A program made the position numbers and the translations under genes. This document shows positions 32,833 to 53,481 of a DNA stretch of 64,000 nucleotides, piece by piece (the stretch's first letter is position 1; each line of letters begins with the position of its first letter). The notes below the pieces were generated by a model. The model saw only the letters and a program-made list of their open reading frames with translations, did no database searches and was not told the origin of the DNA. The DNA is from Candidatus Latescibacterota bacterium (GTDB taxonomy: Bacteria > Latescibacterota > UBA2968 > UBA8231), in contig OZ241889.1 of assembly GCA_965203355.1 (NCBI GenBank), forward strand, positions 3,296,001-3,360,000, written 5' to 3'.

Positions 32833-34964
32833 GCAATTTTCGCGGCATCCTGTTGATTTTTGCCTGGTTGCCAGCTACCCCCCTCGTCCACGCCCAAAGT
32901 GCCGACGACTCCCTCCACGTCGTCGACGAAACCATCGTCACCGGCGCGCGGCTGGCCATCCCCCGCGCCAACGCCATCGCCACCAAAATGCCCCTGCCCC
33001 TGCACAAAACGCCCCTAAGCGTCGGCATCGTCCCCCAGGCCCTAATCGAGACCCAAGACGGAGCGACCCTCAGCGACGCCCTGGCCCATGTCAGCGGCGT
33101 CGGCGTCCACACCAACTTTGGCGTCCACGACCTGTTCTACCTGCGCGGCTTCGACTCGCTCGCCAACGGCTTGGTGCTCTCGGACGGAGCACCCGAGCCC
33201 GAAGCTACCTTCTACCAACTCTACAACGTCGAGCGCGTCGAGGTCCTCAAAGGGCCCGGGGCCTTCCTCTACGGCGGCAACCCGCTGTCGGGCACCATCA
33301 ACCTCGTCCGCAAACGGCCCACCCCGGCGCGCGACTTTGCCCGCGTCAACGCCTCAATAGGCCGCTTCTCCACGTACCGCGCCACCCTCGACGCCAGCCG
33401 CGCCCGGCCCGAGCACAATCTCGCTTGGCGTCTCAACGCGCTGTGGCAGGACGCAGCCGGCTACCGCGACGACAAACACAGCGCCATCATCGCCGTAAAC
33501 CCAACGCTGCGGCTGGACCTCGGCGCGCGGGCGACACTACACCTCGACTTTGAGTATTTGACGAGCGAACATCGCTCGGACTCCGGGCTGCCCATCGTCG
33601 CGGGCGCCTTGCCCGAGGTGCCGCGCACCCGTTCATACCAATCGCCCTTTGATATTTCCGAGCAGACCATCCTGCGCTTTCGCGCCGACTATGAATGGCA
33701 TTTAGGGCCCCATTTCACTTTGCGCGACAAACTCTACTACACCAGCCTCGACTGGCCCTCGCAGGGCACCCTGTTCAACGGAGTTTTTCCCACCGCGGCC
33801 GGTTCGCTTAACCTCGCCCGTACCCTGCTCGACCTCGACGACCAGCAGTGGATCGTCGGCAACCAACTCGAGGGCCTCCTAAAACTTCAAACCGGCGATA
33901 TTGAACACCAGTTGCTCTTTGGCCTAGAGGTCGCCAACCACGCCGACGACTTCACCCTAAACGTGGCCTTGCTTTCGCAGGTCGATCTGTTCACTCTCGA
34001 CGCAACGTTGCCCCCGAGTCTGGCCTCCTTCATGCCAGCCGCCGCCGGGACCGATTCCCTTTTGGTCCCCCTGCCCGACCAAGCCACCGCCGCCCAAGCC
34101 GCCGCGCAAACATGGGCGCCGTACTTTGTCGATCGCCTAATTTTCAGCCCCCACTTTGAGCTGTTGCTCGGGGGCCGCTTTGACAGGATCCACTACGAGG
34201 ACGATTTCACCGCCACCCAGCGCGATTACCGCCAGTTAAGTCCGCTGATCGGGGCCACTTTCGCGCCCACTCAGGCCCTCTCGCTCTACGCCAATGCGGG
34301 CCGCGCTTTTGCCCCGCCTTCCTCCCAAGTCGCTGGCGACCGCCAACCCGAAGAAAGCACCCAGCGCGAAATCGGCGCCAAAGCCGCGCTGCTCAACGGC
34401 CAACTCACCGCCAACCTCGCCCTCTTCAGCCTCGACAAAGAGCACATCGCCATCCCCGACGATAATGGAGTCACCCGGCAGCTCGGCAACCAGCGTGCCC
34501 GGGGCCTAGAGGTGGAACTGGCCGCGCGGCTGGCCCAAGGCTGGTACGCCCAAGGCACCTACGCCTTTTTAGACGCCGAGCTGACGCACTTCAACGAATC
34601 GGTGTTGGTCCCCACCGCCGATGGCTTGGTCCCCCAGGTCTTTGACCGCACCGGCAAGGTGCCGGCCTTCGCGCCCGAACACCTTTTGACGCTGTGGGCC
34701 GCCCGCGACCTAGGCGCGAACCTCACCTTGGCGGCCGGCATCCGCTACGTCGGTAGCCAGTTCGTGGCCGAGGACAATGTCTATGCGATCGACCGGGTGC
34801 TGACGCTCGACTGCGGGCTGACCTATCGGCGAGGTCCCGGGCGGCTGCGGATAAATCTCAAGAACGCGACCAACAGCGAATACGAGACCCGCGGCTTCGG
34901 GGCCACTTCGGTCATCCCGGCGGCCCCTTTCTCCTTTAAGGCGTCCCTAGGGTATTCGCTGTGA
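32829..34964 (+). CDS. TonB-dependent receptor (siderophore-receptor-like)
   Basis: ETIVTG, ATKMPLPL..TPLSV, LRGF, ERVEVLKGPGAFLYG, GTINLVRK, RGLEVE, KNATN..Y, C-terminal beta strand. Confidence 0.9.
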   Translation: MSNFRGILLIFAWLPATPLVHAQSADDSLHVVDETIVTGARLAIPRANAIATKMPLPLHKTPLSVGIVPQALIETQDGATLSDALAHVSGVGVHTNFGVHDLFYLRGFDSLANGLVLSDGAPEPEATFYQLYNVERVEVLKGPGAFLYGGNPLSGTINLVRKRPTPARDFARVNASIGRFSTYRATLDASRARPEHNLAWRLNALWQDAAGYRDDKHSAIIAVNPTLRLDLGARATLHLDFEYLTSEHRSDSGLPIVAGALPEVPRTRSYQSPFDISEQTILRFRADYEWHLGPHFTLRDKLYYTSLDWPSQGTLFNGVFPTAAGSLNLARTLLDLDDQQWIVGNQLEGLLKLQTGDIEHQLLFGLEVANHADDFTLNVALLSQVDLFTLDATLPPSLASFMPAAAGTDSLLVPLPDQATAAQAAAQTWAPYFVDRLIFSPHFELLLGGRFDRIHYEDDFTATQRDYRQLSPLIGATFAPTQALSLYANAGRAFAPPSSQVAGDRQPEESTQREIGAKAALLNGQLTANLALFSLDKEHIAIPDDNGVTRQLGNQRARGLEVELAARLAQGWYAQGTYAFLDAELTHFNESVLVPTADGLVPQVFDRTGKVPAFAPEHLLTLWAARDLGANLTLAAGIRYVGSQFVAEDNVYAIDRVLTLDCGLTYRRGPGRLRINLKNATNSEYETRGFGATSVIPAAPFSFKASLGYSL

Positions 34965-36238
34965 GCCACGGCGAACATCTCAGCCGCGACGCGCTGGCCG
35001 AGCACCAACTTCAACGGCTGCACACCCTGCTGGGCCAAGTGCTGGAGACGAACCCATTTTACCGCCAGAAGCTCAACGCGGCCGGGATCGCCCAGGCCGA
35101 GGACATCGCCGATCTGGACGACTTGGCCCGCCTTCCCTTTACCACCCGCGCCGAGCTTTCGGCCAACCAAGTCGCGCATCCGCCCTACGGCACGAACCTC
35201 ACCTATCCGCCCCAATGCTACACCCGCATCCACCAAACGTCCGGCACCACCGGCCAGCGTTTGCGCTGGCTCGATACGGCCGCAAGCTGGGGCTGGTGGG
35301 GGCGCTGCTGGGCGCAAGTCTATCGCGCCGTTGGCGTCAGCGGCCGGGACCGCATTTTTTTCGCGTTCTCGTTTGGCCCGTTCATCGGCTTCTGGAGCGG
35401 ACACCAAGGAGCCAGCCACCTTGGCGCCTTGATCGTCCCGGGCGGTGGCATGTCGTCGGCGCAGCGTCTAGACGCCATCGTCGAAAACGAAATCACCGTC
35501 CTCGTTTGTACCCCGACGTATGCCTTGCACTTGGGCGAAGTGGCCCGCGCGCGCGGCCTCGATCTGGCCGCAAGCAGCGTACACACGACCATCCACGCGG
35601 GCGAGCCGGGCGCGAACCTCCCGGCTACCCGCGCCCAACTCGAGCGCATTTGGGGGGCCCGCTGTGCCGACCACGCCGGAGCCACCGAAGTCGGCGCTTG
35701 GGGTTTTGACTGCCGCGAACAGGCCGGCCTGCACCTCAACGAGCGCGAGTTCATCTGCGAGATCGTCGATCCGCAAAGCGGCGCACCGGCCGACGAGGGC
35801 GAGCTGGTCATCACCAATCTCGGCCGCCCGGGGATGCCCGTCATCCGCTACCGCACCGGCGACCGCGTCGCCCGCAATCGCACGCCCTGTGCTTGTGGCC
35901 GCACCTTTCAACGGCTGCGCGGCGGCGTCATCGGTCGCCTCGACGATGCCCTGCTCATCCGCGGCGTGGTCGTCTATCCCAGTGCCATTGAAAACGTCGT
36001 GCGCCAGTTCCCGGCCGTCGCCGAATTTGCCGTTGACATCTATCGGCGCAAAGCACTCGACGAGTTGGAGGTGCGCCTAGAACTCAACGGCCAGGCCAAC
36101 GACACCGCCGACCAAGTGGCACGCGCCCTCGCCCACCGGCTGGGGCTGCGCGCCGACATCCAAATGGCCGCGCCGAACACCTTGCCGCGCTTTGAACTCA
36201 AAGCCCGGCGCTTCACCGATCACCGGAGCAAATCGTGA
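34961..36238 (+). CDS. Phenylacetate-CoA ligase (PaaK)-like AMP-binding enzyme
   Basis: LPFTT, HQTSGTTG, CTPTYA, AGEPG, GATEVG, GELVIT, IRYRTGD, GRLDD; GTGA overlap. Confidence 0.85.
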   Translation: MSHGEHLSRDALAEHQLQRLHTLLGQVLETNPFYRQKLNAAGIAQAEDIADLDDLARLPFTTRAELSANQVAHPPYGTNLTYPPQCYTRIHQTSGTTGQRLRWLDTAASWGWWGRCWAQVYRAVGVSGRDRIFFAFSFGPFIGFWSGHQGASHLGALIVPGGGMSSAQRLDAIVENEITVLVCTPTYALHLGEVARARGLDLAASSVHTTIHAGEPGANLPATRAQLERIWGARCADHAGATEVGAWGFDCREQAGLHLNEREFICEIVDPQSGAPADEGELVITNLGRPGMPVIRYRTGDRVARNRTPCACGRTFQRLRGGVIGRLDDALLIRGVVVYPSAIENVVRQFPAVAEFAVDIYRRKALDELEVRLELNGQANDTADQVARALAHRLGLRADIQMAAPNTLPRFELKARRFTDHRSKS

Positions 36239-37491
36239 GCGACGTCATCGTCATCGGCGGCGGCCCGGCGGGCAGTACCGTAGCGGCCCTCGTCGCCGCC
36301 ACCGGCCGCTCAGTCCAGATCTTCGAGCGGGCGCAGTTCCCCCGCTTCGCCATCGGCGAGTCGCTCATGCCAGCGACCTACTGGACGTTCAAACGGCTCG
36401 GGGTGCTCGACCAACTCAGAGACAGCGCCTTCCCCCGCAAACACAGCGTGCAGTTTTTCGGCCCGTCCGGGCGCGGCTCAACGCCCTTTTACTTTTCCGC
36501 CACCAATCCCCACGAGAGCGCGGTAACTTGGCAGGTCTTGCGCGGCCCATTCGACGAGATGCTCCTCGACAACGCCCGCGCCAAAGGGGCCCAAGTGCAT
36601 CAAGGGGCCCGCGTTCTCAAAGTGCTATTCGCCGGCGATCGCGCCCTGGGCGTACGCGCCCAACTCGCCAACGGCCAAACGCGCGATTTTACGGCACAAG
36701 TAGTAGTAGATGCCACCGGCCAGAGTGCGCTGCTGGGCCGCAAGCTCAAGCTGACCCAGCCCGAGCCTGCGCTGAAAAAAGCCTCGATCTACACCCACTA
36801 TCGCGGCGGCCAGCGCGACGAAGGCATGGACGCGGGCGCGACCTTGATCCTCCACACCGAGCAGCGGGATTCCTGGTTCTGGTACATTCCCCTGCCCGAC
36901 GACCGAGTCAGCGTCGGCGTGGTCGGCGCGATTTCCTATTTGGTTCAAGGCCGCCGCGAAAACGCCCAAGCTATCTTCGAGCAAGAGTTGGCCAAGTGCC
37001 GCCCCATGCAGGCGCGCTTGCAACGCGCCGAACCACTCTTTCCGGTCAAAACCACCAAGGACTTCTCCTATCGCGCCAACCGCATCGCCGGCCAAGGCTG
37101 GGTGCTAGTCGGCGATGCGTTCTGTTTTCTCGACCCGATGTACTCTTCGGGCGTGTACCTAGCCCTCAAGTCCGGCGAAATGGCGGCCGACGCCATTGCC
37201 GCGGCTTTTGCCAAAGGCGACTTTTCGGCCGCGCAGTTGGGCGGTTTCGGTCCCGAGCTGGTGCGCGGCATGGAGGCGGTGCGCAAAATGGTGTACGCCT
37301 TCTACGCCAAGGACTTCAGCTTCGCCGAATTCCTCAAGCGCCATCCCGAATGCAAACAGGGGGTCATCGACGTACTCAGCGGCAACCTCTTTAGCGCGCG
37401 CGTCGAGTCCATTTTCGGGCCGATGAGCGAGGTGTGCCCGATGCCGGCCGCGGTCCCCTTAACCCTACAACCTTCAGGAGCGACCCCATGA
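36235..37491 (+). CDS. FAD-dependent halogenase-like oxidoreductase
   Basis: GGGPAG, FPRFAIGESL, FPRK, WFWYIP (WxWxIP), GDAFCFLDPMYSSGV; GTGA overlap. Confidence 0.8.
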   Translation: MSDVIVIGGGPAGSTVAALVAATGRSVQIFERAQFPRFAIGESLMPATYWTFKRLGVLDQLRDSAFPRKHSVQFFGPSGRGSTPFYFSATNPHESAVTWQVLRGPFDEMLLDNARAKGAQVHQGARVLKVLFAGDRALGVRAQLANGQTRDFTAQVVVDATGQSALLGRKLKLTQPEPALKKASIYTHYRGGQRDEGMDAGATLILHTEQRDSWFWYIPLPDDRVSVGVVGAISYLVQGRRENAQAIFEQELAKCRPMQARLQRAEPLFPVKTTKDFSYRANRIAGQGWVLVGDAFCFLDPMYSSGVYLALKSGEMAADAIAAAFAKGDFSAAQLGGFGPELVRGMEAVRKMVYAFYAKDFSFAEFLKRHPECKQGVIDVLSGNLFSARVESIFGPMSEVCPMPAAVPLTLQPSGATP

Positions 37492-37715
37492 ACGCCACCG
37501 GCCGCCGACTCCTCTACTTGGGGCTTCTGGTCCTCTATTTCCTGCACAATGATCTCTGGCTCTGGGACGATCCGCGCATCGTCTGGGGGCTGCCCATCGG
37601 CTTGCTCTATCACATCGGCTTCTGCTTGGCCGCGACCGGGCTGATGGTCTTGCTGGTCAACTACGCTTGGCCGTCCGAGCTGGACGCCGAGAGCGAGGAG
37701 CAGCAATCGGCATGA
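37488..37715 (+). CDS. Small membrane partner of SSS transporter (DUF3311-like)
   Basis: LHNDLWLWDD..VWGLPIGLLYH; two TMs; ATGA overlaps on both sides. Confidence 0.7.
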   Translation: MNATGRRLLYLGLLVLYFLHNDLWLWDDPRIVWGLPIGLLYHIGFCLAATGLMVLLVNYAWPSELDAESEEQQSA

Positions 37716-39166
37716 CTACAATCATCATCTTCTGCTACCTAGGCCTAGTACTCGGCATCGGCGTCCTCTCCAATCGCTTCTTTCGCGGCACCGGCGAGGA
37801 CTACTTCGTCGCCAGTCGCTCCATTGGCCCTTTCCTATTGCTGATGTCGCTGTTTGGCACCAACATGACCGCATTCGCCATTTTGGGCGCCTCCGGCGAA
37901 GCCTATCACGCCGGGATTGGCGTCTTCGCCCTGATGCCTTCAGGGGCCGCCCTGATCATCCCGGCGGTCTTTTTCTTCATTGGTACGCGCGTCTGGGCAC
38001 TCGGCAAACGCCACAACTTGCTCACGCAGGTCCAGTACTTTCGCCGCCGCTGGGAATCCGACGACTTGGGCCTGCTGCTCTTCGCGGTCATGATCGCGCT
38101 GCTGATTCCCTACCTGCTCATCGGCGTCATGGGCGGCGGCCTCACGCTCGCTCAAATTACCAAGGGGCAGATCCCCCAGTGGGTCGGCGGCCTGTTGATC
38201 TGCTTGGTGGTGCTGACCTACGTCAGTTTCGGCGGCATGAGGAGCACCGCTTGGGCCAACGCCTTTCAAACCCTAATTTTTATGATCCTCGGCGGCGCGA
38301 CCTTCTTCGTCATCGTCGATAAGTTAGGTGGGTTGGGCAGCGCACTCGCGCAAGTCGCCGCCGCGCACCCCGAGCTGCTGATCAGAGGCGACCTTGTCAG
38401 TCCGCTCAAACTGTTGACCTATACCTGCATCCCCCTGTCGGTCGGCATGTTCCCCCACCTTTTCACCCACTGGCTCACCGCCCAAAGTGCCCGCACCTTT
38501 CGCTATCCCCTAATGCTGTACCCGCTGTGCATAGCCATCGTCTGGATTCCCAGCGTGTTGTTGGGGATCTTCGGCACGATTGACTTTCCCGGCCTCAAGG
38601 GCGCGGCCGCCAACTCGGTGCTGGTCAAGATGATCGACCTACACGCCCCGAATGCGCTGGCCGGCTTGCTGGCCGCCGGGGTCTTTGCCGCCATCATGTC
38701 CTCGCTCGACTCGCAGGTGCTGTCTATCAGCAACATGTTCACCCAAGACATCGTCCGCCACTATCGCAAGGGCGAAGAGTTGAGCGAAAAGGCCCAAGTC
38801 CTGTGGGGTCGCCTCTTCGTGGCGGCCGTCTTAGCCGTTACCTACGTGCTGTCGCTGATCTCGGCCCGCAGCATCTTCTCCCTCGCCATCTGGTCTTTCA
38901 CCGGCTTTGCCGCGCTCTTTCCGGTGATCGTCGCCGCCCTGTTCTGGAAGCGCAGCACCCAGTACGGCGCCTTTGCCTCGGTGCTCACGGTGGCCGTGCT
39001 GTGGTGCTATTTCTTCTTTCAGGGGTGGAAAATTCCCGGCTATACCGTCGGCATGACCGGGGTGATGCCGGTGGTGGTGATCCTAGCGGCTTCTACCGCC
39101 GCCATGATCGTCGGCTCGCTGCTGACCAAGCCACCCGCCAAAAGCACCGTCGATACCTTTTTCTAG
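37712..39166 (+). CDS. Sodium:solute symporter family protein
   Basis: DYFVASRSIG, GGMRSTAWANAFQ, AAIMSSLDS. Confidence 0.9.
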   Translation: MTTIIIFCYLGLVLGIGVLSNRFFRGTGEDYFVASRSIGPFLLLMSLFGTNMTAFAILGASGEAYHAGIGVFALMPSGAALIIPAVFFFIGTRVWALGKRHNLLTQVQYFRRRWESDDLGLLLFAVMIALLIPYLLIGVMGGGLTLAQITKGQIPQWVGGLLICLVVLTYVSFGGMRSTAWANAFQTLIFMILGGATFFVIVDKLGGLGSALAQVAAAHPELLIRGDLVSPLKLLTYTCIPLSVGMFPHLFTHWLTAQSARTFRYPLMLYPLCIAIVWIPSVLLGIFGTIDFPGLKGAAANSVLVKMIDLHAPNALAGLLAAGVFAAIMSSLDSQVLSISNMFTQDIVRHYRKGEELSEKAQVLWGRLFVAAVLAVTYVLSLISARSIFSLAIWSFTGFAALFPVIVAALFWKRSTQYGAFASVLTVAVLWCYFFFQGWKIPGYTVGMTGVMPVVVILAASTAAMIVGSLLTKPPAKSTVDTFF

Positions 39167-39168
39167 CA

Positions 39169-40473
39169 ATGCGTGTCGCCTACATCACGGCTGGTGCCGC
39201 CAGCATGTACTGCGGCAGCTGCATCCACGACAACGCGCTCGCCGCCGCCCTAACGCGCCGCAACGCCGAGGTCGCCCTGATCCCGACCTACACCCCGCTG
39301 CGCACGGACGAGGAAAACGTTGCGCTGGACCGCGTCTTCTACGGCGGCGTCAGCATCTTCCTGCAACAGCAGTGGTCGTTTTTTCGCCGCACGCACCGCC
39401 TCTTTGACCGCGTGCTCGACTCGCCGCTGCTGATCCGCCTGCTCGCGCGCTTTGGCTCGGCTACCAACGCCCGCGACTTAGGGCCGCTCACCGTCTCCAT
39501 CCTCGCCGGCGAAGCGGGCAACCAACAAAAGGAACTCGCCCGCCTCATCGCCTATCTCCAGCGCGACTTCAAACCCGACCTCATCCAGCTAACCAACGCC
39601 CTGTTCGTCGGCATGGCCCGCCAATTAAAAGCACAACTCAGCGTCCCGGTCCTCTGCGCCCTCCAAGGCGAGGACCTGTTCTTAGACGGCCTAGTTGAAC
39701 CCTACAAGACCCAGGCCCTCGACATCCTGCGCCAGCGCGCCCAAGACATCGACGCCTTCATCGCTCCGTGTGCGTATTACCAAGATCACATGGCCGAATA
39801 TCTACAAGTGCCGCGCGGCAAAATCCACGTGGTGCCGCTCGGCCTCAATCTAAGCGGCCACGGCCAAGCACCCGGGCCGGCCGACAGCCCCTATAAAATC
39901 GGCTACCTCGCCCGCATCTGCCCGGAAAAGGGCTTTCACCTGCTCGTCGATGCCTTCCGACAACTAAAAGAACAACCCGAATTTGCCTCCCTGCGCCTCG
40001 AAGCGGCTGGCTACCTCAGCGCGTACGACAAGCCTTACTTCGCCGAGCAAGTGCAAAAAATCCGCCGCTGGGGGCTAGCCGACTCGTTCACCTACCACGG
40101 CGAGGTCGATCGCCGCGAAAAAATTCGCTTCCTCTGTTCGCTACACGTCTTTTCGGTACCTTCGGTTTACCCCGATCCCAAAGGGCTGTCTATCCTCGAA
40201 GCCCTAGCCAACGGCACTCCGGTCGTCCAACCTAACCACGGCGCGTTCCCCGAGCTGATCGCATCCACTGGCGGCGGTATCCTCGTCGACCCCCATTCCC
40301 CGGCGAGCCTAGCCAACGAACTGGCCGCCTTGCTGCGCGACAAAAAGCGGCGATGCCAACTCGGACAAACCGGCCAAGCGGCGGTCCACAGTCGCCGCCA
40401 CGCCGACGCCATGGCCGCGGCGACGCTCGCCGTGTACCGGTTCAGTTTGACTCAATGCGAGGGCAGCAAATAA
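39169..40473 (+). CDS. Glycosyltransferase family 4 with N-terminal MYCGSC motif
   Basis: IGYLARICPEKG, PKGLSILEALANGTPVV, GAFPELI. Confidence 0.85.
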   Translation: MRVAYITAGAASMYCGSCIHDNALAAALTRRNAEVALIPTYTPLRTDEENVALDRVFYGGVSIFLQQQWSFFRRTHRLFDRVLDSPLLIRLLARFGSATNARDLGPLTVSILAGEAGNQQKELARLIAYLQRDFKPDLIQLTNALFVGMARQLKAQLSVPVLCALQGEDLFLDGLVEPYKTQALDILRQRAQDIDAFIAPCAYYQDHMAEYLQVPRGKIHVVPLGLNLSGHGQAPGPADSPYKIGYLARICPEKGFHLLVDAFRQLKEQPEFASLRLEAAGYLSAYDKPYFAEQVQKIRRWGLADSFTYHGEVDRREKIRFLCSLHVFSVPSVYPDPKGLSILEALANGTPVVQPNHGAFPELIASTGGGILVDPHSPASLANELAALLRDKKRRCQLGQTGQAAVHSRRHADAMAAATLAVYRFSLTQCEGSK

Positions 40474-40485
40474 ACGCGGGGGATT

Positions 40486-40514
40486 TTGACAAATTTACGA
40501 TTCAATCGTAAATT
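40486..40514 (+). promoter_or_regulatory. Promoter overlapped by a perfect 23-bp palindromic operator
   Basis: TTGACA 40486-40491, 17 bp, TAAATT 40509-40514; AATTTACGATT-C-AATCGTAAATT at 40492-40514; ATG at 40521. Confidence 0.75.
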
Positions 40515-40520
40515 CGCCAC

Positions 40521-41062
40521 ATGATCAAGCGAACCCTACAACAGTATCTTTTGCGCGATGCCCGCTTGTACCCGGTACTCACCCTCACCGGCCCACGCCA
40601 AGCTGGCAAGACGACTTTCTGCTACCGCCACATCACCGCAACTTCAGCAAGCGGCTGATCAAAAGTCCCAAGCTGTACTTCTACGACACCGGCCTCGCCT
40701 GTTATTTGCTGGGCATAAAAGACCCCCAAGTGCTGCCCACCCATCCGTTGCGCGGCGCCCTTTTTGAAAATTATCAAGTCGCCGAGGTCGCCAAAGCCTT
40801 CTACCACCATCGCCAGCAGCCCCCGCTGTATTTTTGGCGCGACCGCACCGGCCACGAGGTCGATCTACTGGTGGAACAGGGATCGGCGCTCTACCCGATT
40901 GAGATCAAGTCTGGACAAACGGTCAGTTCGGATGCGTTCACGGCCCTTGCTTGGTGGAGCCGCACGGCCGGACAGGACCTGGCGAATGCTTCGCTGATCT
41001 ACGGCGGCGACCGCGCACACCGGCAGAGCCGAGTGGCGGTGCGGCCGTGGTTTGCCGTTTGA
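40521..41062 (+). pseudogene. AAA+ ATPase/DUF4143 protein with large internal deletion and frameshift
   Basis: MIKR...LTGPRQAGKTT switches frame at ~40617 into KRLIKSPKLYFYDTG...FENY...YFWRD...EVD...IEIK. Confidence 0.85.
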
Positions 41063-41109
41063 ACGGGATCACACGTTGGGGTTGGGGGTTGCGTCAACCT
41101 GCGGTCGTG

Positions 41110-43020
41110 CTACCGCAGCAGGATGAGCTTGCGCTTTGCGACAACCTGGTCCGTCGTCAGCCGATAGAGGTACACGCCGCTGGCCACCCGGGCCCCAGCG
41201 GCGTCCCGACCGTCCCAGTGCAGCCGGTGGTAGCCAGCCGACTGCGGCCCTTCGGACAACACCGCCACCCGTTGGCCGCTCAGCGCGAACACTTCCAGCC
41301 GCACCAGACCCGGCTCCAGCAGAAAATACGAAACAACGGTCTCGCTGTTGAACGGATTGGGTGCGTTTTGCCGCAGCTCGGTGCGGCTGGGCCGGGCCAC
41401 CCGTTTGCCGTCGAAGCCCGCGTATTCCGACGCTTGTCCCGTGGCCGTAAAGGTGAGCACCGTGTCGACATTAGCGACCGTGGCCGCCACCATGTTCGGC
41501 CCCGGCTTGGGGCCGAGCCGCAGAGAGTTTCTGGCGCGTCCCGTGGCATCGGTGGTGGCGGTGGCAGCCGACAGCGTCCCGCCGCCGGCCGCAATGGAAA
41601 AGCGGACGACCACTCCGGCCTTAGCCGAGCCGTTTTGGTCCAAGGCCGCAACGACAAACGGCTCGGCTAAGGCCGCACCCACTAGCCCTTGCTGCTCGTC
41701 GCCGGATATTTTTTTCAGGGTGGAAGGCTTCGCTCCGTTCGAGGTTGCGGCCAGCGCATTGGCCGGACTTGGGCTAACAAAGGCGCGCCCGGTTTTTTCC
41801 TCCGCTCGAAACACGACTAGGTCCTTGTCGTATTGATCTTTGACTAACCAGATGTGACCAATCAAGGTCTGTATAATGTGATGTCCGAAGGCGAGGCGGC
41901 CGCGGTATCGCTCCGCACCATTAGGCGCTAGCCAATAGTAGGTGATCGGGGCGGCCGTGTTATTTATCAAGACGATCTCTGTTTCGCCCATTTCGCTACT
42001 TAGGCTTCTTAGGCTTGAAAGCTGACTCGGATCATACAGCGTCAAATTCACCCACTTATCGCCGCCGTCGCTGGCTGGATCAAACAATTGCTTAAAACAC
42101 GCGACTAACTCCGGCGGCCATGCAAACGTTGGCGAATACTGCGGGTCAAATCCTTGCAGATGCGGCAGTTGGGTGCGCGTTGTAGCCGGTGTGTAGCGCC
42201 AGTCTGTATCGCCAAAGACCTCGGTAATCAACTCGGCCAGCACGGGGTCGTAATCTTTTAACTTGGCCCGAGTGTTAATGCCAAAGAATGCAAACTGTGC
42301 GTCGAACCAAACTTGTACCCCTTCAGCCCAGTACTCATTCTTGTTTGTAGAAGCATAAGTGCCTTTCCACAATCCCTGGGCTATGGCCGAGTCAAACGCC
42401 TCTCCCAGCCGATCATCAAAATCCGGATCGACCGTATTCAATCCATACCGATGCACGCTATGACTGAACTCGTGAATCAGAACGTTGTACCCGTCGTAGG
42501 GATCGCCCGGATAATTCAGCAAGTTTTCCTCGCCGCAACTCGATTCTCGGGTCCCCAAACCGCGCGCCCGGCGATCCCAAAAAAAACTAGGGCGGAGATA
42601 AGCGTATTCGGGAATCTGCGTTAGCATTTCGCTATATGCGATCACGGAAAAACTAGCCCTGTTTTGCACCATCGCCTGTAGCACCGCTGGGCGATGGCTC
42701 ATTAGCTGCCAAATCAGCCATGCCGCTTCTTTTACGGCGGATGGATTCACGTTCTCTGATGCTACAACCGGGAATCCTTCCACATCGATCCATTGCTGGT
42801 AAAACGACGTCAGCTCGAAAGCAGCCCGAACCGCTGGTGAAGGCGCGCGGATGAGGAAGTCTTCGCTGCTGGGGGGTGTCGTCTCGGCAAGTCGCTTGGC
42901 GGCCGGGTGCGCGAAAGGTAGGTGGCAAGCTGGCGAGGGCAACGCATAAGCCACGGCCAGCGGCCAAAGCACGCAGCCGATTAACGCAAAAAGGACCGCG
43001 CGAAAAACGGATGTTTTCAT
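41110..43020 (-). CDS. Secreted multidomain protein: zincin (HExxH), VHL-beta-like, Big-1 and FlgD-Ig tail
   Basis: Signal peptide from MKTSV; IHEFSHSVH...EYWAEG; INNT..ITYYWL..G...QT..GHIWLVKD; ISGDEQQG..PFVV..TDATG; QNAPNPFN...WDGRD..G..VASGVYLYRL. Confidence 0.75.
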   Translation of the reverse strand: MKTSVFRAVLFALIGCVLWPLAVAYALPSPACHLPFAHPAAKRLAETTPPSSEDFLIRAPSPAVRAAFELTSFYQQWIDVEGFPVVASENVNPSAVKEAAWLIWQLMSHRPAVLQAMVQNRASFSVIAYSEMLTQIPEYAYLRPSFFWDRRARGLGTRESSCGEENLLNYPGDPYDGYNVLIHEFSHSVHRYGLNTVDPDFDDRLGEAFDSAIAQGLWKGTYASTNKNEYWAEGVQVWFDAQFAFFGINTRAKLKDYDPVLAELITEVFGDTDWRYTPATTRTQLPHLQGFDPQYSPTFAWPPELVACFKQLFDPASDGGDKWVNLTLYDPSQLSSLRSLSSEMGETEIVLINNTAAPITYYWLAPNGAERYRGRLAFGHHIIQTLIGHIWLVKDQYDKDLVVFRAEEKTGRAFVSPSPANALAATSNGAKPSTLKKISGDEQQGLVGAALAEPFVVAALDQNGSAKAGVVVRFSIAAGGGTLSAATATTDATGRARNSLRLGPKPGPNMVAATVANVDTVLTFTATGQASEYAGFDGKRVARPSRTELRQNAPNPFNSETVVSYFLLEPGLVRLEVFALSGQRVAVLSEGPQSAGYHRLHWDGRDAAGARVASGVYLYRLTTDQVVAKRKLILLR

Positions 43021-43112
43021 GGAATCAGTCTTCTGTGTGGGATCGGCGTTGGCATCGACCGGGGCCAAAACAAGGTCGATTTTGGTGCGGCTGTCAAAAT
43101 CGCGCCGCCGCG

Positions 43113-44006
43113 TTAAATTTTCCCGGCCGCGACAAACTCCCGCAAGAGTGCCAAGAAAGCCTCGGTCGCGGGCGCACGCCGGCGGCCCCGGTGCTCGATG
43201 AGACCTATTTGGCGTTTGGCCAATCCATGGACCGGTATGGCGCACACTTTTCCGGCGGCGACTTCTGCTTCCACGGCCACCGCTGGCACCAGCGCGACCC
43301 CCAACCCAATCTCCACATAGCGCTTGATAATCTCGATCCCGCCGAGCGTCATTTCAACCTGCAACGCCAAGCCCTCCTGCTGAAAAATCTCGTCGAGCAA
43401 ATGCCGACTCGTGCTCCCGCGCTCCAAGACCAGAAACGGATATTGGGCAAGCTGTTTGAGCCGTATCCTGCGCCTTTTGCTCAGCGCGTGGTTCCGGGGA
43501 CAAATGAGCACATCCCGCCGCGCAAAAAGCGGCGCGCTGACCAAATCGCGGTGCTTGACCGGCAAGGTCGCCAACCCGAATTCCACCTCGTCGTTGAGCA
43601 CTAGCTTGCTCACCTCCGGCGACATTCGATTGCGGATGTCCAACTCGACCGCCGGGTAGCGCGCGCGGAACTCGGCGAGCACGTTGGGCAAAACATAGGT
43701 GCAGTTGGTATCGCTCGTCCCGATGGCCAGCCGCCCCCGCAAAATCTGCTTGAGCGCCGCAATATCGTCGCGCGCCTGCTCCAGCCGGGCGAGCACCTCC
43801 TTCGCCTGAGCAAAGAGGATCTCGCCGGCGGGCGTCAGACGGAGCTGCCGCCGATTGCGCTCGAGTAGGAGCGCGTCCAGTTCGCTCTCCAATGCCTTGA
43901 TCTGAAGGCTAAGGGCCGGCTGCGTCAGAAAGAGCTTGTCGGCCGCCCGCGTAAAGCTCTGCTCGCGGACGATTTCGTAGAAACTACGCAGTTGGTAGAG
44001 GTCCAT
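43113..44006 (-). CDS. LysR-family transcriptional regulator
   Basis: QLRSF...SFTRAADKLFLTQPALSLQIKALE, LTPAG, effector-binding domain. Confidence 0.95.
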   Translation of the reverse strand: MDLYQLRSFYEIVREQSFTRAADKLFLTQPALSLQIKALESELDALLLERNRRQLRLTPAGEILFAQAKEVLARLEQARDDIAALKQILRGRLAIGTSDTNCTYVLPNVLAEFRARYPAVELDIRNRMSPEVSKLVLNDEVEFGLATLPVKHRDLVSAPLFARRDVLICPRNHALSKRRRIRLKQLAQYPFLVLERGSTSRHLLDEIFQQEGLALQVEMTLGGIEIIKRYVEIGLGVALVPAVAVEAEVAAGKVCAIPVHGLAKRQIGLIEHRGRRRAPATEAFLALLREFVAAGKI

Positions 44007-44018
44007 TCCGAGTCTTTC

Positions 44019-44068
44019 ATTTATAAAACTTATGCTAAGAATAAGATATATAAATTTTCATTATGCTA
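44019..44068. promoter_or_regulatory. LysR T-N11-A boxes in the divergent lysR/purA-like promoter
   Basis: ATAA-N7-TTAT at 44050-44064; second T-N11-A at 44020-44032; TTATGCTA repeated at 44030 and 44061. Confidence 0.6.
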
Positions 44069-44126
44069 CAATTTCGCTTATCATCAGCGGTGTCAACCTA
44101 TTCACGCTTTGCAATGGAGGTGCGTT

Positions 44127-45146
44127 ATGAGCGCCATCATCGTCGTCGACGCCTTCTGGGGCGATTCGGGTAAAGGCAAGGTCGCCGCCTTCCTCGCGCA
44201 AAAACACCAAGCGGCTTACAGCGTCCGAGCGGGAGTCGGCACTAACGCTGGGCACAGCATTCTCTTTGCCGACGGCCGCGCAATCCGCACTCAGCAGTTG
44301 CCCTGCGGCTTTCTCCATCCCCGTACGCAACTGCGCGTGGGCAGCGGCGTCGCCGTTGATCCCGAGCTGTTCTTCGCCGAACTCGACGCGCTAGACCCGA
44401 GCTATGGGCTGCGCGAGCGCACCCGCGTTGATTACCGCTGCCCACTGATTCTGCCCGAGTACCGCCAACGCGAAGCGGCCGACGTCTTTCTGCAAGAACG
44501 CGGCACCACCGCCAGCGGCAGCGGTGTCGCCCACGCTGAATTTGCCCTGCGCCAAGCGCGACAAGCCCGCGACGAGCCTACCCTCGCCGATTACACCGCC
44601 GACGTGGCCCGCGAGCTCAACGAGAGCGGCCTGCGCGGTGAAACCATCGTCGTCGAGGGCAGCCAAGGCACCCACCTGTCGCTAGCCCTGAGCGACGACT
44701 ATCCCGACTGCACCGCGGACAACTGCACCACGGCCGCCTTGGCCGATGACGTCGGACTCAACTGGCGTCATATTGAAGAAGTCTACTTGGTGGTCAAAGC
44801 ACTGCCAAGCCGCGTCGGCACCGGCCCGCTCCCCCGGCAATTGACGCCGGCCGAAGAAGACCGCCGCGGCCTGGTCGAATACGGCGTGGTGACCGGGCGA
44901 CGGCGGCGCAAAGCCGCGGGCATCTCTTGGCCCCATTTGGAAACCGCCGTCCTACTCAATGGGCCCACCCAGTTGGCTCTGACCTTCTGCGACCACCTCG
45001 ACCCGGCGGTCGCCGGGGCGCGTCAGCACCGTGCCTTGACCGCGCCCGTCCGTCAGCTCATCGACGAACTGGAGACGCGATTCAACATTCCCGTATCGCT
45101 CTGCGATTGTGGGGTACACTTCGAGCATCTCATCGAGCGTGCGTGA
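44127..45146 (+). CDS. Short (339 aa) archaeal-type adenylosuccinate synthetase homologue, divergent
   Basis: SD GGAGG; WGDSGKGK, GVGTNAGH, VDYRC, EGSQG, SRVG.GP, EYGVVTGRRRR. Confidence 0.85.
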   Translation: MSAIIVVDAFWGDSGKGKVAAFLAQKHQAAYSVRAGVGTNAGHSILFADGRAIRTQQLPCGFLHPRTQLRVGSGVAVDPELFFAELDALDPSYGLRERTRVDYRCPLILPEYRQREAADVFLQERGTTASGSGVAHAEFALRQARQARDEPTLADYTADVARELNESGLRGETIVVEGSQGTHLSLALSDDYPDCTADNCTTAALADDVGLNWRHIEEVYLVVKALPSRVGTGPLPRQLTPAEEDRRGLVEYGVVTGRRRRKAAGISWPHLETAVLLNGPTQLALTFCDHLDPAVAGARQHRALTAPVRQLIDELETRFNIPVSLCDCGVHFEHLIERA

Positions 45147-45212
45147 CCTCTCGACAGCAGCGAGTCTGCTAGCCACATTATGGGCAAACGCGCAAGCGAA
45201 AGGATTACCTCC

Positions 45213-45683
45213 ATGACTTGGCTCGTCTTCGCCCTGCTCACGGTCGCTAGCTGGGGCTGCTACGGCGTCCTGCTGCACACCGGCCAGCTCGCCATGGCCG
45301 ACCCGGTACACGGCCGCTACAAAGCCTTCCTCTTTGTCGGCTTGGCCTATCTCCTCACGGCGGTTTTCGGCTCGCTGATCGTCCTCGCCTACCACGGCGC
45401 GAGCGGGCTCTATCCGGCCAAAGGCGTCTTTTGGTCCACGGCCGCTGGCATCGCCGGGGCCATCGGCGCGTTGGGCGTCCTCCTCGCCTTCGGGGCCAAG
45501 GGGACGCCAGCCGTGGTCATGTCCATCGTCTTTGCCGGTGCTCCCATCGTCAACGCGGTCGTCGCCGTGCTATTGCATCCGCCCGCTGGCGGCTGGGCTA
45601 CCGTGCGCTGGCCCTTTGTCCTCGGCATCGTCTTAGCCGCTGTGGGGGGCTGCCTAGTGACCTTCTTCCGCCCGGGCAACTGA
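45213..45683 (+). CDS. DMT/EamA-like small membrane protein
   Basis: About five TMs; WG.YG, VMSIVFAGAPIVNA. Confidence 0.6.
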   Translation: MTWLVFALLTVASWGCYGVLLHTGQLAMADPVHGRYKAFLFVGLAYLLTAVFGSLIVLAYHGASGLYPAKGVFWSTAAGIAGAIGALGVLLAFGAKGTPAVVMSIVFAGAPIVNAVVAVLLHPPAGGWATVRWPFVLGIVLAAVGGCLVTFFRPGN

Positions 45684-45684
45684 C

Positions 45685-46101
45685 GTGTCCGTCGAATTCC
45701 GCACCCGCCGCCGCATTGAGTGGGCCGATACCGATCCGGCCGGCATCGTCCACTTTGCCCGCTTCTTCGTCTTTATGGAAGCGGCCGAGCACGCCTGCTG
45801 GCGCAGCCTCGGCCTGAGCGTCCACAGCCAATGCAACGGCGACATCATTAGCTGGCCCCGGGTCGTCGCCGAATGCGAGTACTTCCGCCCGGTCTCCTTT
45901 GAAGAGGTCCTCGACATCCACGTACGCCTCGAAGAGCAGGGCGAGAAATCCCTCTGTTTTCGCTTCGACTTTCACTGCGGCGGCACGCACATAGCCCAAG
46001 GCCGACTCAAGATCGCCTGCTGCGTCTGCAATCCGGGCGAAGCCATCCGCGCCATCCCCATCCCGGACTTTATCACCGGCAAACTGGCGGCCTCCCCGTG
46101 A
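45685..46101 (+). CDS. 4HBT/YbgC-type acyl-CoA thioesterase
   Basis: WADTDPAGIVHFARFFVFME.AE hot-dog fold motif. Confidence 0.9.
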   Translation: MSVEFRTRRRIEWADTDPAGIVHFARFFVFMEAAEHACWRSLGLSVHSQCNGDIISWPRVVAECEYFRPVSFEEVLDIHVRLEEQGEKSLCFRFDFHCGGTHIAQGRLKIACCVCNPGEAIRAIPIPDFITGKLAASP

Positions 46102-46775
46102 ACGCAGCCCCGGCCCTGGTCGCCACTGGTGTCTGCAAGCACTTCGCCCGCGGCGGCCAGACCATCGAAGTGCTGCGCGGGGTCTCCCTGTGCGCCGCGG
46201 TGGGCCAATCCCTGGCACTCATCGGCCCGTCCGGCTCGGGCAAGAGCACCTTGCTGCACCTGCTCGGCACCCTCGAACCCCCAACCGCCGGCCAAATCGC
46301 CATCCGGGGCCAAGACCCGCTAGCCCTCCCGGAACCGCAACTCGCCCGCTTCCGCAACCAGCACATCGGCTTCGTTTTCCAAAACCACCACCTGCTGCCC
46401 CAGTATTCGGCCCTCGAAAACGCCCTAATCCCCACCCTCGCCTTTCCCCAAGCCGACCGCCGCGCCCGCGCCCGCGACCTTTTGCAGGCGGTCGGTTTAG
46501 CAGAACGCCTCGACCACCGGCCGGCCGAGCTTTCCGGCGGCGAGTGCCAGCGCGTGGCTGTGGCGCGGGCCTTGATCAACCAGCCCGGGCTCTTGCTCTG
46601 CGACGAACCGACCGGCAGCCTCGACCGCCAGACCGCCACCACCGTCGCGGACCTGCTCTTCGCGCTGCACCGCGCCGAGCCAGCGGCCCTCGTCATCGCA
46701 ACCCACGACCTGGAGCTAGCGGCGCGTTGCGACCGCCGCCTGCTCCTGCGCGAGGGAACGTGCGTCCCAGCCTAA
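46098..46775 (+). CDS. LolD/MacB-type ABC ATP-binding protein
   Basis: GPSGSGKST, IGFVFQ, LSGGECQRVAVARAL, CDEPTG, ATHD; GTGA overlap. Confidence 0.95.
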   Translation: MNAAPALVATGVCKHFARGGQTIEVLRGVSLCAAVGQSLALIGPSGSGKSTLLHLLGTLEPPTAGQIAIRGQDPLALPEPQLARFRNQHIGFVFQNHHLLPQYSALENALIPTLAFPQADRRARARDLLQAVGLAERLDHRPAELSGGECQRVAVARALINQPGLLLCDEPTGSLDRQTATTVADLLFALHRAEPAALVIATHDLELAARCDRRLLLREGTCVPA

Positions 46776-51474: not shown

Positions 51475-52476
51475 TTACTGATCCGTTATCCGCCGCAACT
51501 GGTTGGCCCTCTCAATAAGTTGGGGATTGGGCCAATCCGCTTTATTCGTCGGCAAGTGTATTTGAGAGTCCAAGTAACCGCGCAAATCGTCGAGGCCGTC
51601 GTCGAGTCGCTGGCTTTTTAATTCATCCGCTTTCTGTTTATTGAGCCGCATGTAGTATGTTGTATCGAGATAAATCAAACTGCTGTCGTACGCTCGATGT
51701 ATGGTCGGCGACAGTGCGATGCCATTAGAAATATCATCTGTTCCCTGGGCACCTACTGGCACAATGTGGGCGGCATCAACGAGATTGAGTTGTGCTCTCG
51801 TCACCGCACAGCGGCGCGCATAAGCATTCATAACTTGCCGCCGAAAACTCGACGTACGCGCATAGAAACTTATCGATTCGACGATTCTTTGCCGCTCTTT
51901 CGCCAGTTTCCCCATTTCTTGCGGCCTTATTTCCTCCAACTGAGCCGCCTTTCGCAAGAGGGTGTATGTCGAAAGATCGCCTCCGTATTGATGCAGAGAG
52001 ACCGCATTAAACACGTAATTCAGAAATTGATCTGGACGAATCCCAACGGCTATTTCTTGGTTGTCTTTGCGAGAAAAAGCCAAGCCGTCTCCAAGAGCCG
52101 TGTGAATAGCTCCTATATCGACCTGAACAGAGGGCGAACCTGCTGTGAATGTGTGATGTTTATCTATGTCAAAACCTGCAAACATATCGCTCTCAGCGTG
52201 ATAACCCAGTAACACAGTATGACCGCTTGGATTGATCGCTAGTGGAGCGGAAATCGAAGTCATCTGAATTCTGTACTCGTCCGGTAAAGACTGCCGACCG
52301 CCGTGAGTGAGTGTCCAGATATAGACCCAAAGTGAAATGGTATCGTCGCCATATTGAACCAAAAATTCTCTAGGATGAGTGGCTAGTTGCTCAGACATAT
52401 AGAAACCACTACCACCCGACATTTGTATGGCGCGAAGAATGGCATCAACGAGTTGAGTAGGTGGAACAGCAGGCAT
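51475..52476 (-). CDS. HNH endonuclease with N-terminal methylase-associated domain
   Basis: C-terminal FR..V..AY..RCAVT...DAAHIVP...NGIALSPTIHRAYD; N-terminal VYIWTLTHGG...EYRIQ. Confidence 0.8.
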   Translation of the reverse strand: MPAVPPTQLVDAILRAIQMSGGSGFYMSEQLATHPREFLVQYGDDTISLWVYIWTLTHGGRQSLPDEYRIQMTSISAPLAINPSGHTVLLGYHAESDMFAGFDIDKHHTFTAGSPSVQVDIGAIHTALGDGLAFSRKDNQEIAVGIRPDQFLNYVFNAVSLHQYGGDLSTYTLLRKAAQLEEIRPQEMGKLAKERQRIVESISFYARTSSFRRQVMNAYARRCAVTRAQLNLVDAAHIVPVGAQGTDDISNGIALSPTIHRAYDSSLIYLDTTYYMRLNKQKADELKSQRLDDGLDDLRGYLDSQIHLPTNKADWPNPQLIERANQLRRITDQ

Positions 52477-52482
52477 AGTTTC

Positions 52483-53481
52483 CTAGGTCGCTTTTTTGTT
52501 TTTAGGTCTTTTCTTGCCCCCATCGTCCGACAGGGCTTCTTCACCATCGGTTCCATTCCACATCGCCGCAGGGTGGCAAAGGCTGTAAGAAGGCACTTTC
52601 TTTTTGCCTTTATGTTTGGTCTCAAACCTAAAAAGACTGCCGGCAAGGTATTCTTTGACGAGATCACAGCAGAGCCATTTGCGCTGCAATCGCTCGGCAA
52701 CTTCTCCCGTTACACAAGAACCCGCTAAAGGGTCGAACACTAAGTCGCCCTTATCGGTGAGCATCCTAATAAAGTACTCGGGCAATTCAGCCGGGAAGCG
52801 CGCGGGATGCGGTTTTATATCGTGCTCCTTGCAAAGTCGCAAGTAGTTGGAATTGCTCTCGGTGTTGGGAATTGCGATGAGATTGGGCGGAATAGAAGCA
52901 CCATTATCAATGTTAAACTTTTCACTAATATCGTGCCCACTCGGCCTCAGCTTGGCTTTATATCCACTTTTGAGCAATCCTTTCATTGAATTGCTATAGG
53001 GAATCAGAACCCGGCGATTGCTAGCTTTCGGCCAAGGAGTTGGCGAAAGCCACCAGACGCAATTGACTGCATCTTTAACTCGAACTCGCCGGATGTTCAC
53101 CCACTCGGCTGGCGTAGGCAATTTTGAAGGATTCCACCAGAAGAATTCTTGGGCGAGATGAAAATCGAATTCCCGACAAAGCATAATCAAAAGCTCGTAG
53201 TGATAAAGAGAGCGAGTCGGTTGCCCTGGAATCCAAGCACCACCAATGTCAATGACCAGCGAGCCATTGTCCTTGAGGATGCGTATAAATTCTTTGGCAA
53301 AGGGCCGAAACCAGTCGAGGTATTGATCCGCATCGACATTGCCGTAGTCTTTTTTGCGGACCAAGCCAAATGGCGGGGACGTCATAATCAGATTAACGCT
53401 TTTATCCCCAACACCCACCATGAGATCGAGTGCGTCGCCCCAGTAGATTTCCCCTAAATCGGTTTTGTAAAATAGTTCCAT
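52483..53481 (-). CDS. N4-cytosine DNA methyltransferase, M.PvuII-like (beta class)
   Basis: TSPPF..RKK.YGN, NPSKLP.P.EWVN.R..RVKDAVN, RPSGHDI, IPPNL, HPARFP, DPLAGS. Confidence 0.9.
   Translation of the reverse strand: MELFYKTDLGEIYWGDALDLMVGVGDKSVNLIMTSPPFGLVRKKDYGNVDADQYLDWFRPFAKEFIRILKDNGSLVIDIGGAWIPGQPTRSLYHYELLIMLCREFDFHLAQEFFWWNPSKLPTPAEWVNIRRVRVKDAVNCVWWLSPTPWPKASNRRVLIPYSNSMKGLLKSGYKAKLRPSGHDISEKFNIDNGASIPPNLIAIPNTESNSNYLRLCKEHDIKPHPARFPAELPEYFIRMLTDKGDLVFDPLAGSCVTGEVAERLQRKWLCCDLVKEYLAGSLFRFETKHKGKKKVPSYSLCHPAAMWNGTDGEEALSDDGGKKRPKNKKAT

Follow-up and report, generated by a model that had tools for sequence, protein, structure and literature searches.

The window analysed here is a 64,000-nt stretch of contig OZ241889.1 from a Candidatus Latescibacterota bacterium. 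Within it, a short gene of the adenylosuccinate synthetase (PurA) family lies opposite a LysR-type regulator gene. The features of this locus are:

43113-44006, minus strand: divergent LysR-type regulator of 297 aa, which adjoins the PurA-like gene across Latescibacterota
44050-44064, no strand assigned: predicted LysR-type operator ATAA-N7-TTAT (T-N11-A), conserved between the LysR and the PurA-like gene
44055-44084, plus strand: sigma-70-like site TTTTCA-18-TATCAT (9/12 matches, a consensus match only), overlapping the operator
44116-44120, plus strand: ribosome-binding site GGAGG
44127-45146, plus strand: short-clade adenylosuccinate synthetase gene, an open frame of 339 aa (product P0001)
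44340-44354 and 44517-44531, plus strand: 15-nt direct repeat pair with a spacing of 177 nt (59 codons), the window copy being intact
45180-46775, plus strand: genes for a membrane protein, a hotdog thioesterase and an ABC ATPase, downstream neighbours outside the conserved unit

The 339-aa frame and all motifs quoted for it in a first-pass annotation, which had been made from the DNA letters, are present at 44127-45146: P0001 displays VDAFWGDSGKGK, GVGTNAGH, DYRC, GTTASGSGV, YPDCTA, RVGTGP, GLVEYG and LTFCDH. The motifs that had been listed as altered relative to PurA were likewise all found in the protein.

Regulator, operator and neighbouring genes

The operator sequence ATAAATTTTCATTAT at 44050-44064 is the sole T-N11-A box match within the window. 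Taken alone, such a box is weak, with 0.18 matches expected by chance and a match in 16 of 100 shuffles. The LysR gene adjoins the PurA-like gene in 44/114 family loci and the exact ATAA-N7-TTAT sequence recurs in 33/42 upstream regions examined (41/42 for a looser form), so that the LysR link claimed in the first-pass annotation is conserved. A TrmB-type gene lies directly upstream in 13 loci of the clustered neighbour set. The strict operator form occurs once per genome, at the PurA-like locus, in 5/5 genomes; counts of a looser pattern were close to those of a reversed control in 4/5 genomes, and higher in the genome G532 (55 vs 34). This pattern suggests that the LysR regulon may consist of a single gene. 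A divergent LysR-type regulator with a conserved T-N11-A dyad corresponds to the layout of a classic LysR-regulated pair, and we infer that the PurA-like gene is inducible via LysR. The regulator is the only conserved neighbour of the short-clade gene, and a clade-wide survey showed that the neighbours are mostly not purine genes.

The first-pass annotation had placed the gene in a possible transcription unit with the downstream membrane protein, thioesterase and ABC genes. These stand beside it in 13, 13 and 11 of 114 loci, all from close relatives; other genes are inserted in between at L002 and L096, and the three are absent at L010. An operon with the downstream genes as a conserved unit was therefore rejected. 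In the window strain read-through into these genes may occur, as the 33-nt gap 3' of the PurA-like gene revealed no terminator-like site. The label 'DMT' for the first of them (45180/45213-45683) had to be dropped, as its product gave no match at E<=0.001 in NCBIfam or Pfam and only a weak one to MASE3 (E 0.009).

The surroundings of the gene vary between relatives. At L033:5082-8004 and at L006, L011, L034 and L010, one to four extra genes lie between operator and PurA-like gene; genes inserted behind the operator encode a Cof-type HAD hydrolase, a TehB-like methyltransferase, a NUDIX protein and an alpha/beta hydrolase. One Latescibacterota subgroup (L200-L205, L207, L208, L065, L094, L111) has a CrcB/Fluc fluoride-channel gene 3' of the PurA-like gene, and where the latter is lost in that subgroup the channel gene sits directly behind the LysR operator. 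Behind the LysR gene, window positions 40474-43100 form a variable insertion site with the remnant of an ATPase gene and the gene of a large Big_1/FlgD-domain protein of secreted type, and the counterparts in relatives contain other small genes. Positions 32829-40473 hold a row of genes for a TonB-dependent receptor, an acyl-CoA-ligase-like, a flavin halogenase-like, a sodium:solute symporter and a glycosyltransferase protein, of which the part from the halogenase-like to the glycosyltransferase gene is kept in close relatives. Two minus-strand genes at 51475-53481 resemble, on visual inspection, those of an HNH-type nuclease and of a DNA methyltransferase.

A short PurA clade and its active site

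P0001 scored 163 bits against the Pfam model PF00709 (cut-off 27) and has the PurA fold. Its top NCBIfam model was the short archaeal PurA (NF003295/PRK04293) with 295 bits, below the cut-off of 368; other short-clade members scored 267-364. The PurZ model NF038379 gave 117 bits, below its cut-off of 300. The closest solved structure by sequence is Pyrococcus horikoshii PurA (E 1.5e-77), and an AlphaFold model of P0001 (pLDDT 89.8) aligned to 5K7X with a TM score of 0.94 and an rmsd of 1.7 Å at 39% identity. An ESM Atlas search revealed PF00709 clusters only.

A protein search for relatives of P0001 returned 629 matches, and the best 120 of the 629 all showed at least 55% identity. Common to the relatives are the signatures D[AS][FL]WGDSGKGK, YPxxTS[DG]NCT and LTFCDH. 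Carriers are mostly Latescibacterota, with a full-length copy in 42/167 genomes; copies also occur in 5/401 genomes of Chloroflexota and 5/151 of an actinomycete family, and the clade is found in Planctomycetota, and in metagenome loci which by our own reading of their ORFs are archaeal-like, CPR-like or phage-like in gene content. A quick maximum-likelihood tree of 111 proteins (IQ-TREE, no bootstrap) placed P0001 in a 56-row clade with an SH-aLRT of 100, apart from archaeal-type PurA, long PurA, PurZ, PurZ0 and the enzyme of a 7-deazapurine cluster; the tree supports this split, not the deeper position of the clade relative to PurZ. P0001 does not group with archaeal PurA in this tree. Annotated phage and plasmid collections contained no clade match above about 35% identity, and among 50,697 phage records there was no close match to P0001, the best reaching about 31%. 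No description of the clade was found in the literature covered, which includes few subscription journals, nor in passages of PMC6112128 and bioRxiv 10.1101/2025.10.22.683976. The short clade is a further deep PurA branch, widespread and apparently unstudied.

Several smaller groups were observed among the relatives. In one close subclade the gene stands between proB and proA at L079-L081, follows lysC close to asd at L085, L086 and L135, and precedes hemL at L089. A link to amino-acid acyl phosphates, suggested by these placements, was rejected: they are limited to this one subclade, its Asp loop is ordinary and no mechanism was found. A nested subclade (L136-L138, L142, L145, L146, L133, L156, L157) has Gly8/Glu14, NAEHG and a rebuilt aspartate loop, and adjoins GMP-reductase-like or HPRT-type genes, partly on phage-like contigs. 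A PurZ-like gene (DLQFGSCGKG) with an HD-domain-like neighbour was seen at L169:928-1983, on a small contig of a Planctomycetota bin (G445) which is probably a phage fragment.

P0001 is like archaeal PurA (P. horikoshii, PDB 2D7U/5K7X) in length, fold and both short-form deletions, and also in Asp13, His41, the Asp loop GxVTGR and the GTP-specifying Asp333. It differs in its score below the NF003295 cut-off, its separate clade and its Asp8/Ser14 in place of Gly8/Glu14; the short clade further has the signatures LSLALSxDYPxxTSDNCT and LTFCDH and occurs as a regulator-linked second copy in bacteria. P0001 is likely PurA-like in function, yet belongs neither to the archaeal equivalog nor to PurZ.

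The 2-aminoadenylosuccinate synthetases PurZ and PurZ0 (PDB 6FM1, 7ODX, 7VF6; NF038379) are short forms as well, and Vibrio phage PurZ and P0001 have in common YPxCT, a Phe at the NTP stacking position and the pair of Asp8 with a small residue 14. According to PMC8342488 (sections 7-8), PurZ reads adenine by residues of its NTP site, has Arg303 displaced and carries an insertion by which the ribose pocket becomes narrower; according to PMC12884076, Ser replaces Asp13 in PurZ and PurZ0. By contrast, Asp13 is present in 168/168 clade members; P0001 keeps Arg303 and D333, shows neither the insertion after the RVG loop nor the displaced arginine that serve deoxy-selection, is without the adenine-reading residues, has a GVxTGR rather than a TTVTxK loop and is 27-29% identical to PurZ/PurZ0. 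The window gene is chromosomal, with no datZ, mazZ, dutZ or dmtZ neighbours within the window; one distant locus (L127) has an NDT-family neighbour. The earlier statement that this is not a canonical PurZ is confirmed, and a PurZ-like role is ruled out by the residues, the score of 117 vs 300 bits and the tree.

Another short PurA, of the type called ToyG, belongs to a toyocamycin-type 7-deazapurine cluster on Rhizobium leguminosarum plasmids (L181, NZ_CP071402.1 202099-215091). This toyocamycin/sangivamycin-like gene set comprises folE, short purA, purB, queE, queC, an IMPDH-like gene, nitrile hydratase, HAD and PRTase genes. The cluster enzyme is a paralogue beside a housekeeping copy, as P0001 is, and 35% identical to it; it differs by N38G, Q224N and T239V and belongs to another clade. 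A linkage to folE, queC, queE, PRTase and purB genes is absent around the window gene and was not seen in the neighbour clusters inspected.

Active-site residues were compared in Salmonella PurA numbering and tallied over 168 full-length clade members. The correspondences between P0001 and enterobacterial PurA are:

P0001 D13, K16, N40, H43, T128, R142, Q180: D13, K16, N38, H41, T129, R143, Q224 of enterobacterial PurA
P0001 T196, V230, T256, R258, R260, D289: T239, V273, T301, R303, R305, D333 of enterobacterial PurA

Nine residues (D13, K16, N38, R143, Q224, T239, R303, R305, D333) are invariant in 168/168 members; position 301 is T in 152 and S in 16, position 273 V in 164 and I in 4. Besides the invariant set, P0001 keeps H41, T129, V273 and T301. 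It thus has the catalytic pair Asp13 and His41 (D13, H43), the IMP contacts N38, T129, T239, V273, R303 and R143' together with the IMP-site residue Q224, and the Asp loop T301/R303/R305 with the GTP-specifying D333 (T256, R258, R260, D289). The equivalent H. pylori residues contact IMP and GDP in structures, according to PMC11276676 and PMC11571797.

The standard GDEGKG with Glu14 is not found in the clade: 165 of the 168 members have Ser at position 14 and the other 3 have Ala. Among 146 representatives, of which 129 could be parsed, all 30 with Asp8 have a residue other than Glu at position 14; 23 of these fall outside the family filter, and the rows are not phylogenetically independent. 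The Glu14-to-Ser change looks compensated by Gly8-to-Asp, as a structural swap. The TFCD motif retains the guanine-reading Asp. With catalytic and ligand-binding residues intact, the motif changes flagged in the first-pass annotation are clade signatures and mostly benign.

Across the clade, other positions vary. Position 129 is Val in 60/168 members, and position 300 is T in 90, V in 37, N in 15, A in 14 and R in 10, Val being the archaeal state. His41, a catalytic residue of PurA, is replaced by Ala (TNAGAS) in 23/168 full-length members; the change occurs at 24 metagenome or genome loci and in further Chloroflexota and actinomycete copies. In the E. coli enzyme, the Km for IMP reportedly rises when the T129 hydroxyl is lost, and activity is reported to fall strongly without H41. 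The TNAGAS copies form one branch (SH-aLRT 99) with P0001 outside it, lie mostly behind a TrmB-type gene and show a dN/dS of 0.104, which indicates purifying selection. Loci of this branch are L153:1501-2511, L152, L027, L028, L193-L197 and about 24 metagenome loci. T129V, the variable position 300 and H41A count against a fully ordinary site across the clade.

These variants, the depth of the clade (SH-aLRT 100) and its near-universal retention beside long PurA would suit a ligase for a new substrate: in place of IMP it might take an analogue or a damaged purine nucleotide (7-deaza, deoxy, methylated), or in place of aspartate another amine. We consider such an enzyme unlikely, as the base-, ribose-, Asp- and GTP-contact residues checked are all kept in P0001. 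The short PurA encoded on a plasmid together with folE, queC, queE, purB and nitrile hydratase is a precedent, but it lies outside the clade and carries site changes of its own; in some relatives, genes for HAD, NUDIX, methyltransferase and hydrolase proteins stand between operator and gene, but no partner enzyme is conserved. The H41A branch, under purifying selection as it is, is the strongest reason for keeping the new-substrate case alive.

Second copies, replacement and loss

Paralogy was judged from relatives at about 90% protein identity. A long PurA is also present in 31/34 genomes behind the first loci and in 6/6 actinomycete carriers checked. Among full-length Latescibacterota carriers, 41/42 have a second, long-type PurA match, and the exception (G001) is also without purH. 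The gene had been proposed to be an accessory paralogue, and these counts support the proposal; in the Latescibacterota lineage it is generally not the only purA of the genome. That 41/42 carriers keep both enzymes also fits a non-redundant job.

Two genomes (G024, G435), which are the only ones of one Planctomycetota order and represent one lineage of unstated completeness, revealed no PF00709 match besides the short clade. Both contain purB, purH and purM, and their uppS locus, where purA is found in 8/10 relatives' loci, is contiguous and without purA. Purine genes adjoin the short gene in some members. It lies directly behind an IMPDH/GMP-reductase-family gene in the core members L132 and L143, followed in the phage-like L132 by a purB-like gene and thyX; it lies behind HPRT-type genes in the nested relatives L145 and L133, and a methylthioinosine phosphorylase gene is nearby at L106. 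The products of all these neighbours make or consume IMP. Chloroflexota genomes G183, G207 and G383 are without long PurA and their copies carry H41A; 6/61 related genomes are without any PurA match, and G183 and G215 showed no full purB match. Gap-filling for PurC or ArgG was considered and rejected, since purC was present in 5/5 carriers tested and an ArgG-family match in 5/5 (one weak). This lack of an obvious Asp-ligase gap and the sole-copy genomes G024 and G435 speak against a new substrate.

The same is true of a replacement found among 36 Latescibacterota genomes chosen for lacking an intact copy, 14 of which keep the LysR gene. In G609 the LysR is 89% identical to that of the window, operator and both flanks match, and the slot is occupied by a long PurA (L212:7574-8857) which scores above both NCBIfam cut-offs. 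Its GC3 of 0.47 vs 0.70-0.78 shows foreign codon usage; an imported long PurA has replaced the short gene behind the same LysR. This long variant was detected in 5/167 Latescibacterota genomes, none of which has the short gene, and the four placeable ones fall at three positions among the short-gene carriers. Because the G609 variant is itself unusual (EAQLG, R143K, R272C; R272C/S across the variant), the shared function of the slot need not equal the textbook reaction. The G609-type site also accepts HAD, methyltransferase, NUDIX and hydrolase genes. In four Latescibacterota the gene of the long variant (loci L212-L217, L219-L222) is followed by a CYTH-domain gene. No viral match to the G609 replacement protein was found in a scan.

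The layout of divergent LysR and PurA is shared between the EAQLG long variant and the P0001 gene, and in G609 the slot is the same; the variant differs by its long form and is 25% identical to P0001. Its relatives stand beside purB in Vescimonas and opposite a LysR that is unrelated and not orthologous (25-29% identity) in Plesiomonas, Vibrio, Aeromonas and Photobacterium. A search of E. coli did not find the Plesiomonas LysR/PurA module, and we found no paper on an EAQLG long variant opposite LysR. An unrelated PurA opposite an unrelated LysR in these four gammaproteobacterial genera would fit a target-bypass isozyme: an inhibitor of PurA, be it an alarmone, a mimic of aspartate or a nucleotide analogue for the IMP site, would be sensed by the regulator, which would switch on a less sensitive enzyme of the same chemistry. 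That the gene stands alone and has a regulator of its own, of the LysR or the TrmB type, would fit as well, as would the patchy spread over Latescibacterota, Chloroflexota and the actinomycete family and the variation at the IMP- and Asp-site positions 129, 130 and 300. We regard this reading as distinctly unlikely, since the neighbour survey linked no inhibitor, producer cluster or resistance gene consistently to the gene, purine-salvage neighbours and the sole-copy lineage require no inhibitor, and the literature searched for PurA self-resistance yielded nothing.

The short gene is dispensable and often deleted in relatives. No trace of it was left in 10/14 LysR-bearing loci of the 36 chosen genomes, and stops, frameshifts or remnants were found in seven genomes (G533, G528, G614, G026, G029, G597, G598). 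Clean internal in-frame deletions with six junctions occur in 12/23 close-homologue clusters, against 0/12 close LysR clusters. They lie within residues 71-205 at short repeats (P0009, P0012, P0013, P0016, P0045, P0046, P0048, P0056, P0062-P0065), and the 177-nt spacing of the repeat pair in the window matches the in-frame deletion of P0045, P0046 and P0048. Some of the deletions may be artefacts that arose during assembly or amplification, at a hot spot rich in repeats. Read mapping in four runs revealed no deletion joint inside the gene; in an RNA run, parts of the gene were covered at low depth by contigs of a relative, possibly derived from DNA.

Broken copies, remnants and deletions of this kind would be expected if the gene were a dispensable passenger, or coded for a nucleotide-binding protein of weak activity, and were decaying in the lineage. 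This is very unlikely for P0001: both the window copy and a 97%-like copy on an independent sponge metagenome contig are intact, and by member count the deletions, some of which may be artefacts, amount to about 27/295. The dN/dS of intact short copies (0.149) is similar to that of neighbouring genes (0.157 for LysR and 0.162), with 0.094 for long purA; intact short copies are under purifying selection.

Proposed role and significance

In PurA, Asp13 activates IMP, GTP phosphorylates O6 and aspartate displaces the phosphate. Ordinary chemistry of this kind, with the conditional-isozyme and inhibitor-bypass readings taken jointly, is probable for P0001 because nine site residues are invariant, the PurZ determinants are absent, Asp8 and Ser14 covary and intact copies are under purifying selection, and also because of the sole-copy genomes G024 and G435, the purine-gene neighbours and the long PurA replacement in G609. 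The altered nucleotide or amino-acid specificity proposed in the first-pass annotation is not supported, in view of the intact catalytic and ligand-binding residues, the sole-copy genomes and the same replacement.

Within ordinary chemistry, we lean towards a second, conditionally expressed isozyme under a dedicated LysR that provides extra IMP-to-AMP capacity. P0001 would then be an active adenylosuccinate synthetase (IMP + L-Asp + GTP to adenylosuccinate + GDP + Pi), controlled by the divergent LysR through the conserved ATAA-N7-TTAT box, with a housekeeping long PurA alongside. Abundant salvaged purine or a limiting main enzyme would be the trigger, raising the flux from IMP to AMP. It is unlikely, in our view, that the clade is a regulator-switched PurA-fold family off the textbook reaction, which uses another substrate or amine or resists a natural PurA inhibitor, and in which the H41A branch performs a different half-reaction or serves as a nucleotide-binding sensor. 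If this were true, the combination of a regulator with a second PurA would have arisen at least three times (with this LysR, with TrmB and with the gammaproteobacterial LysR) around one purine stress. Should the gene encode no more than a back-up isozyme, what is gained is modest: an annotation, and an example of gene displacement in evolution.

PurA is usually taken for a single-copy housekeeping gene, of which PurZ and the copies in antibiotic clusters are the known offshoots. The short clade is a further deep PurA branch in several bacterial phyla and in archaeal-like and phage-like loci. Its gene can be the only one, can give way to an unrelated PurA under an unchanged regulator, or can lose a catalytic residue. 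The natural E14S/G8D, T129V and H41A variants are ready tests of the accepted catalytic mechanism, and the effector of the LysR would show when cells need a second PurA.
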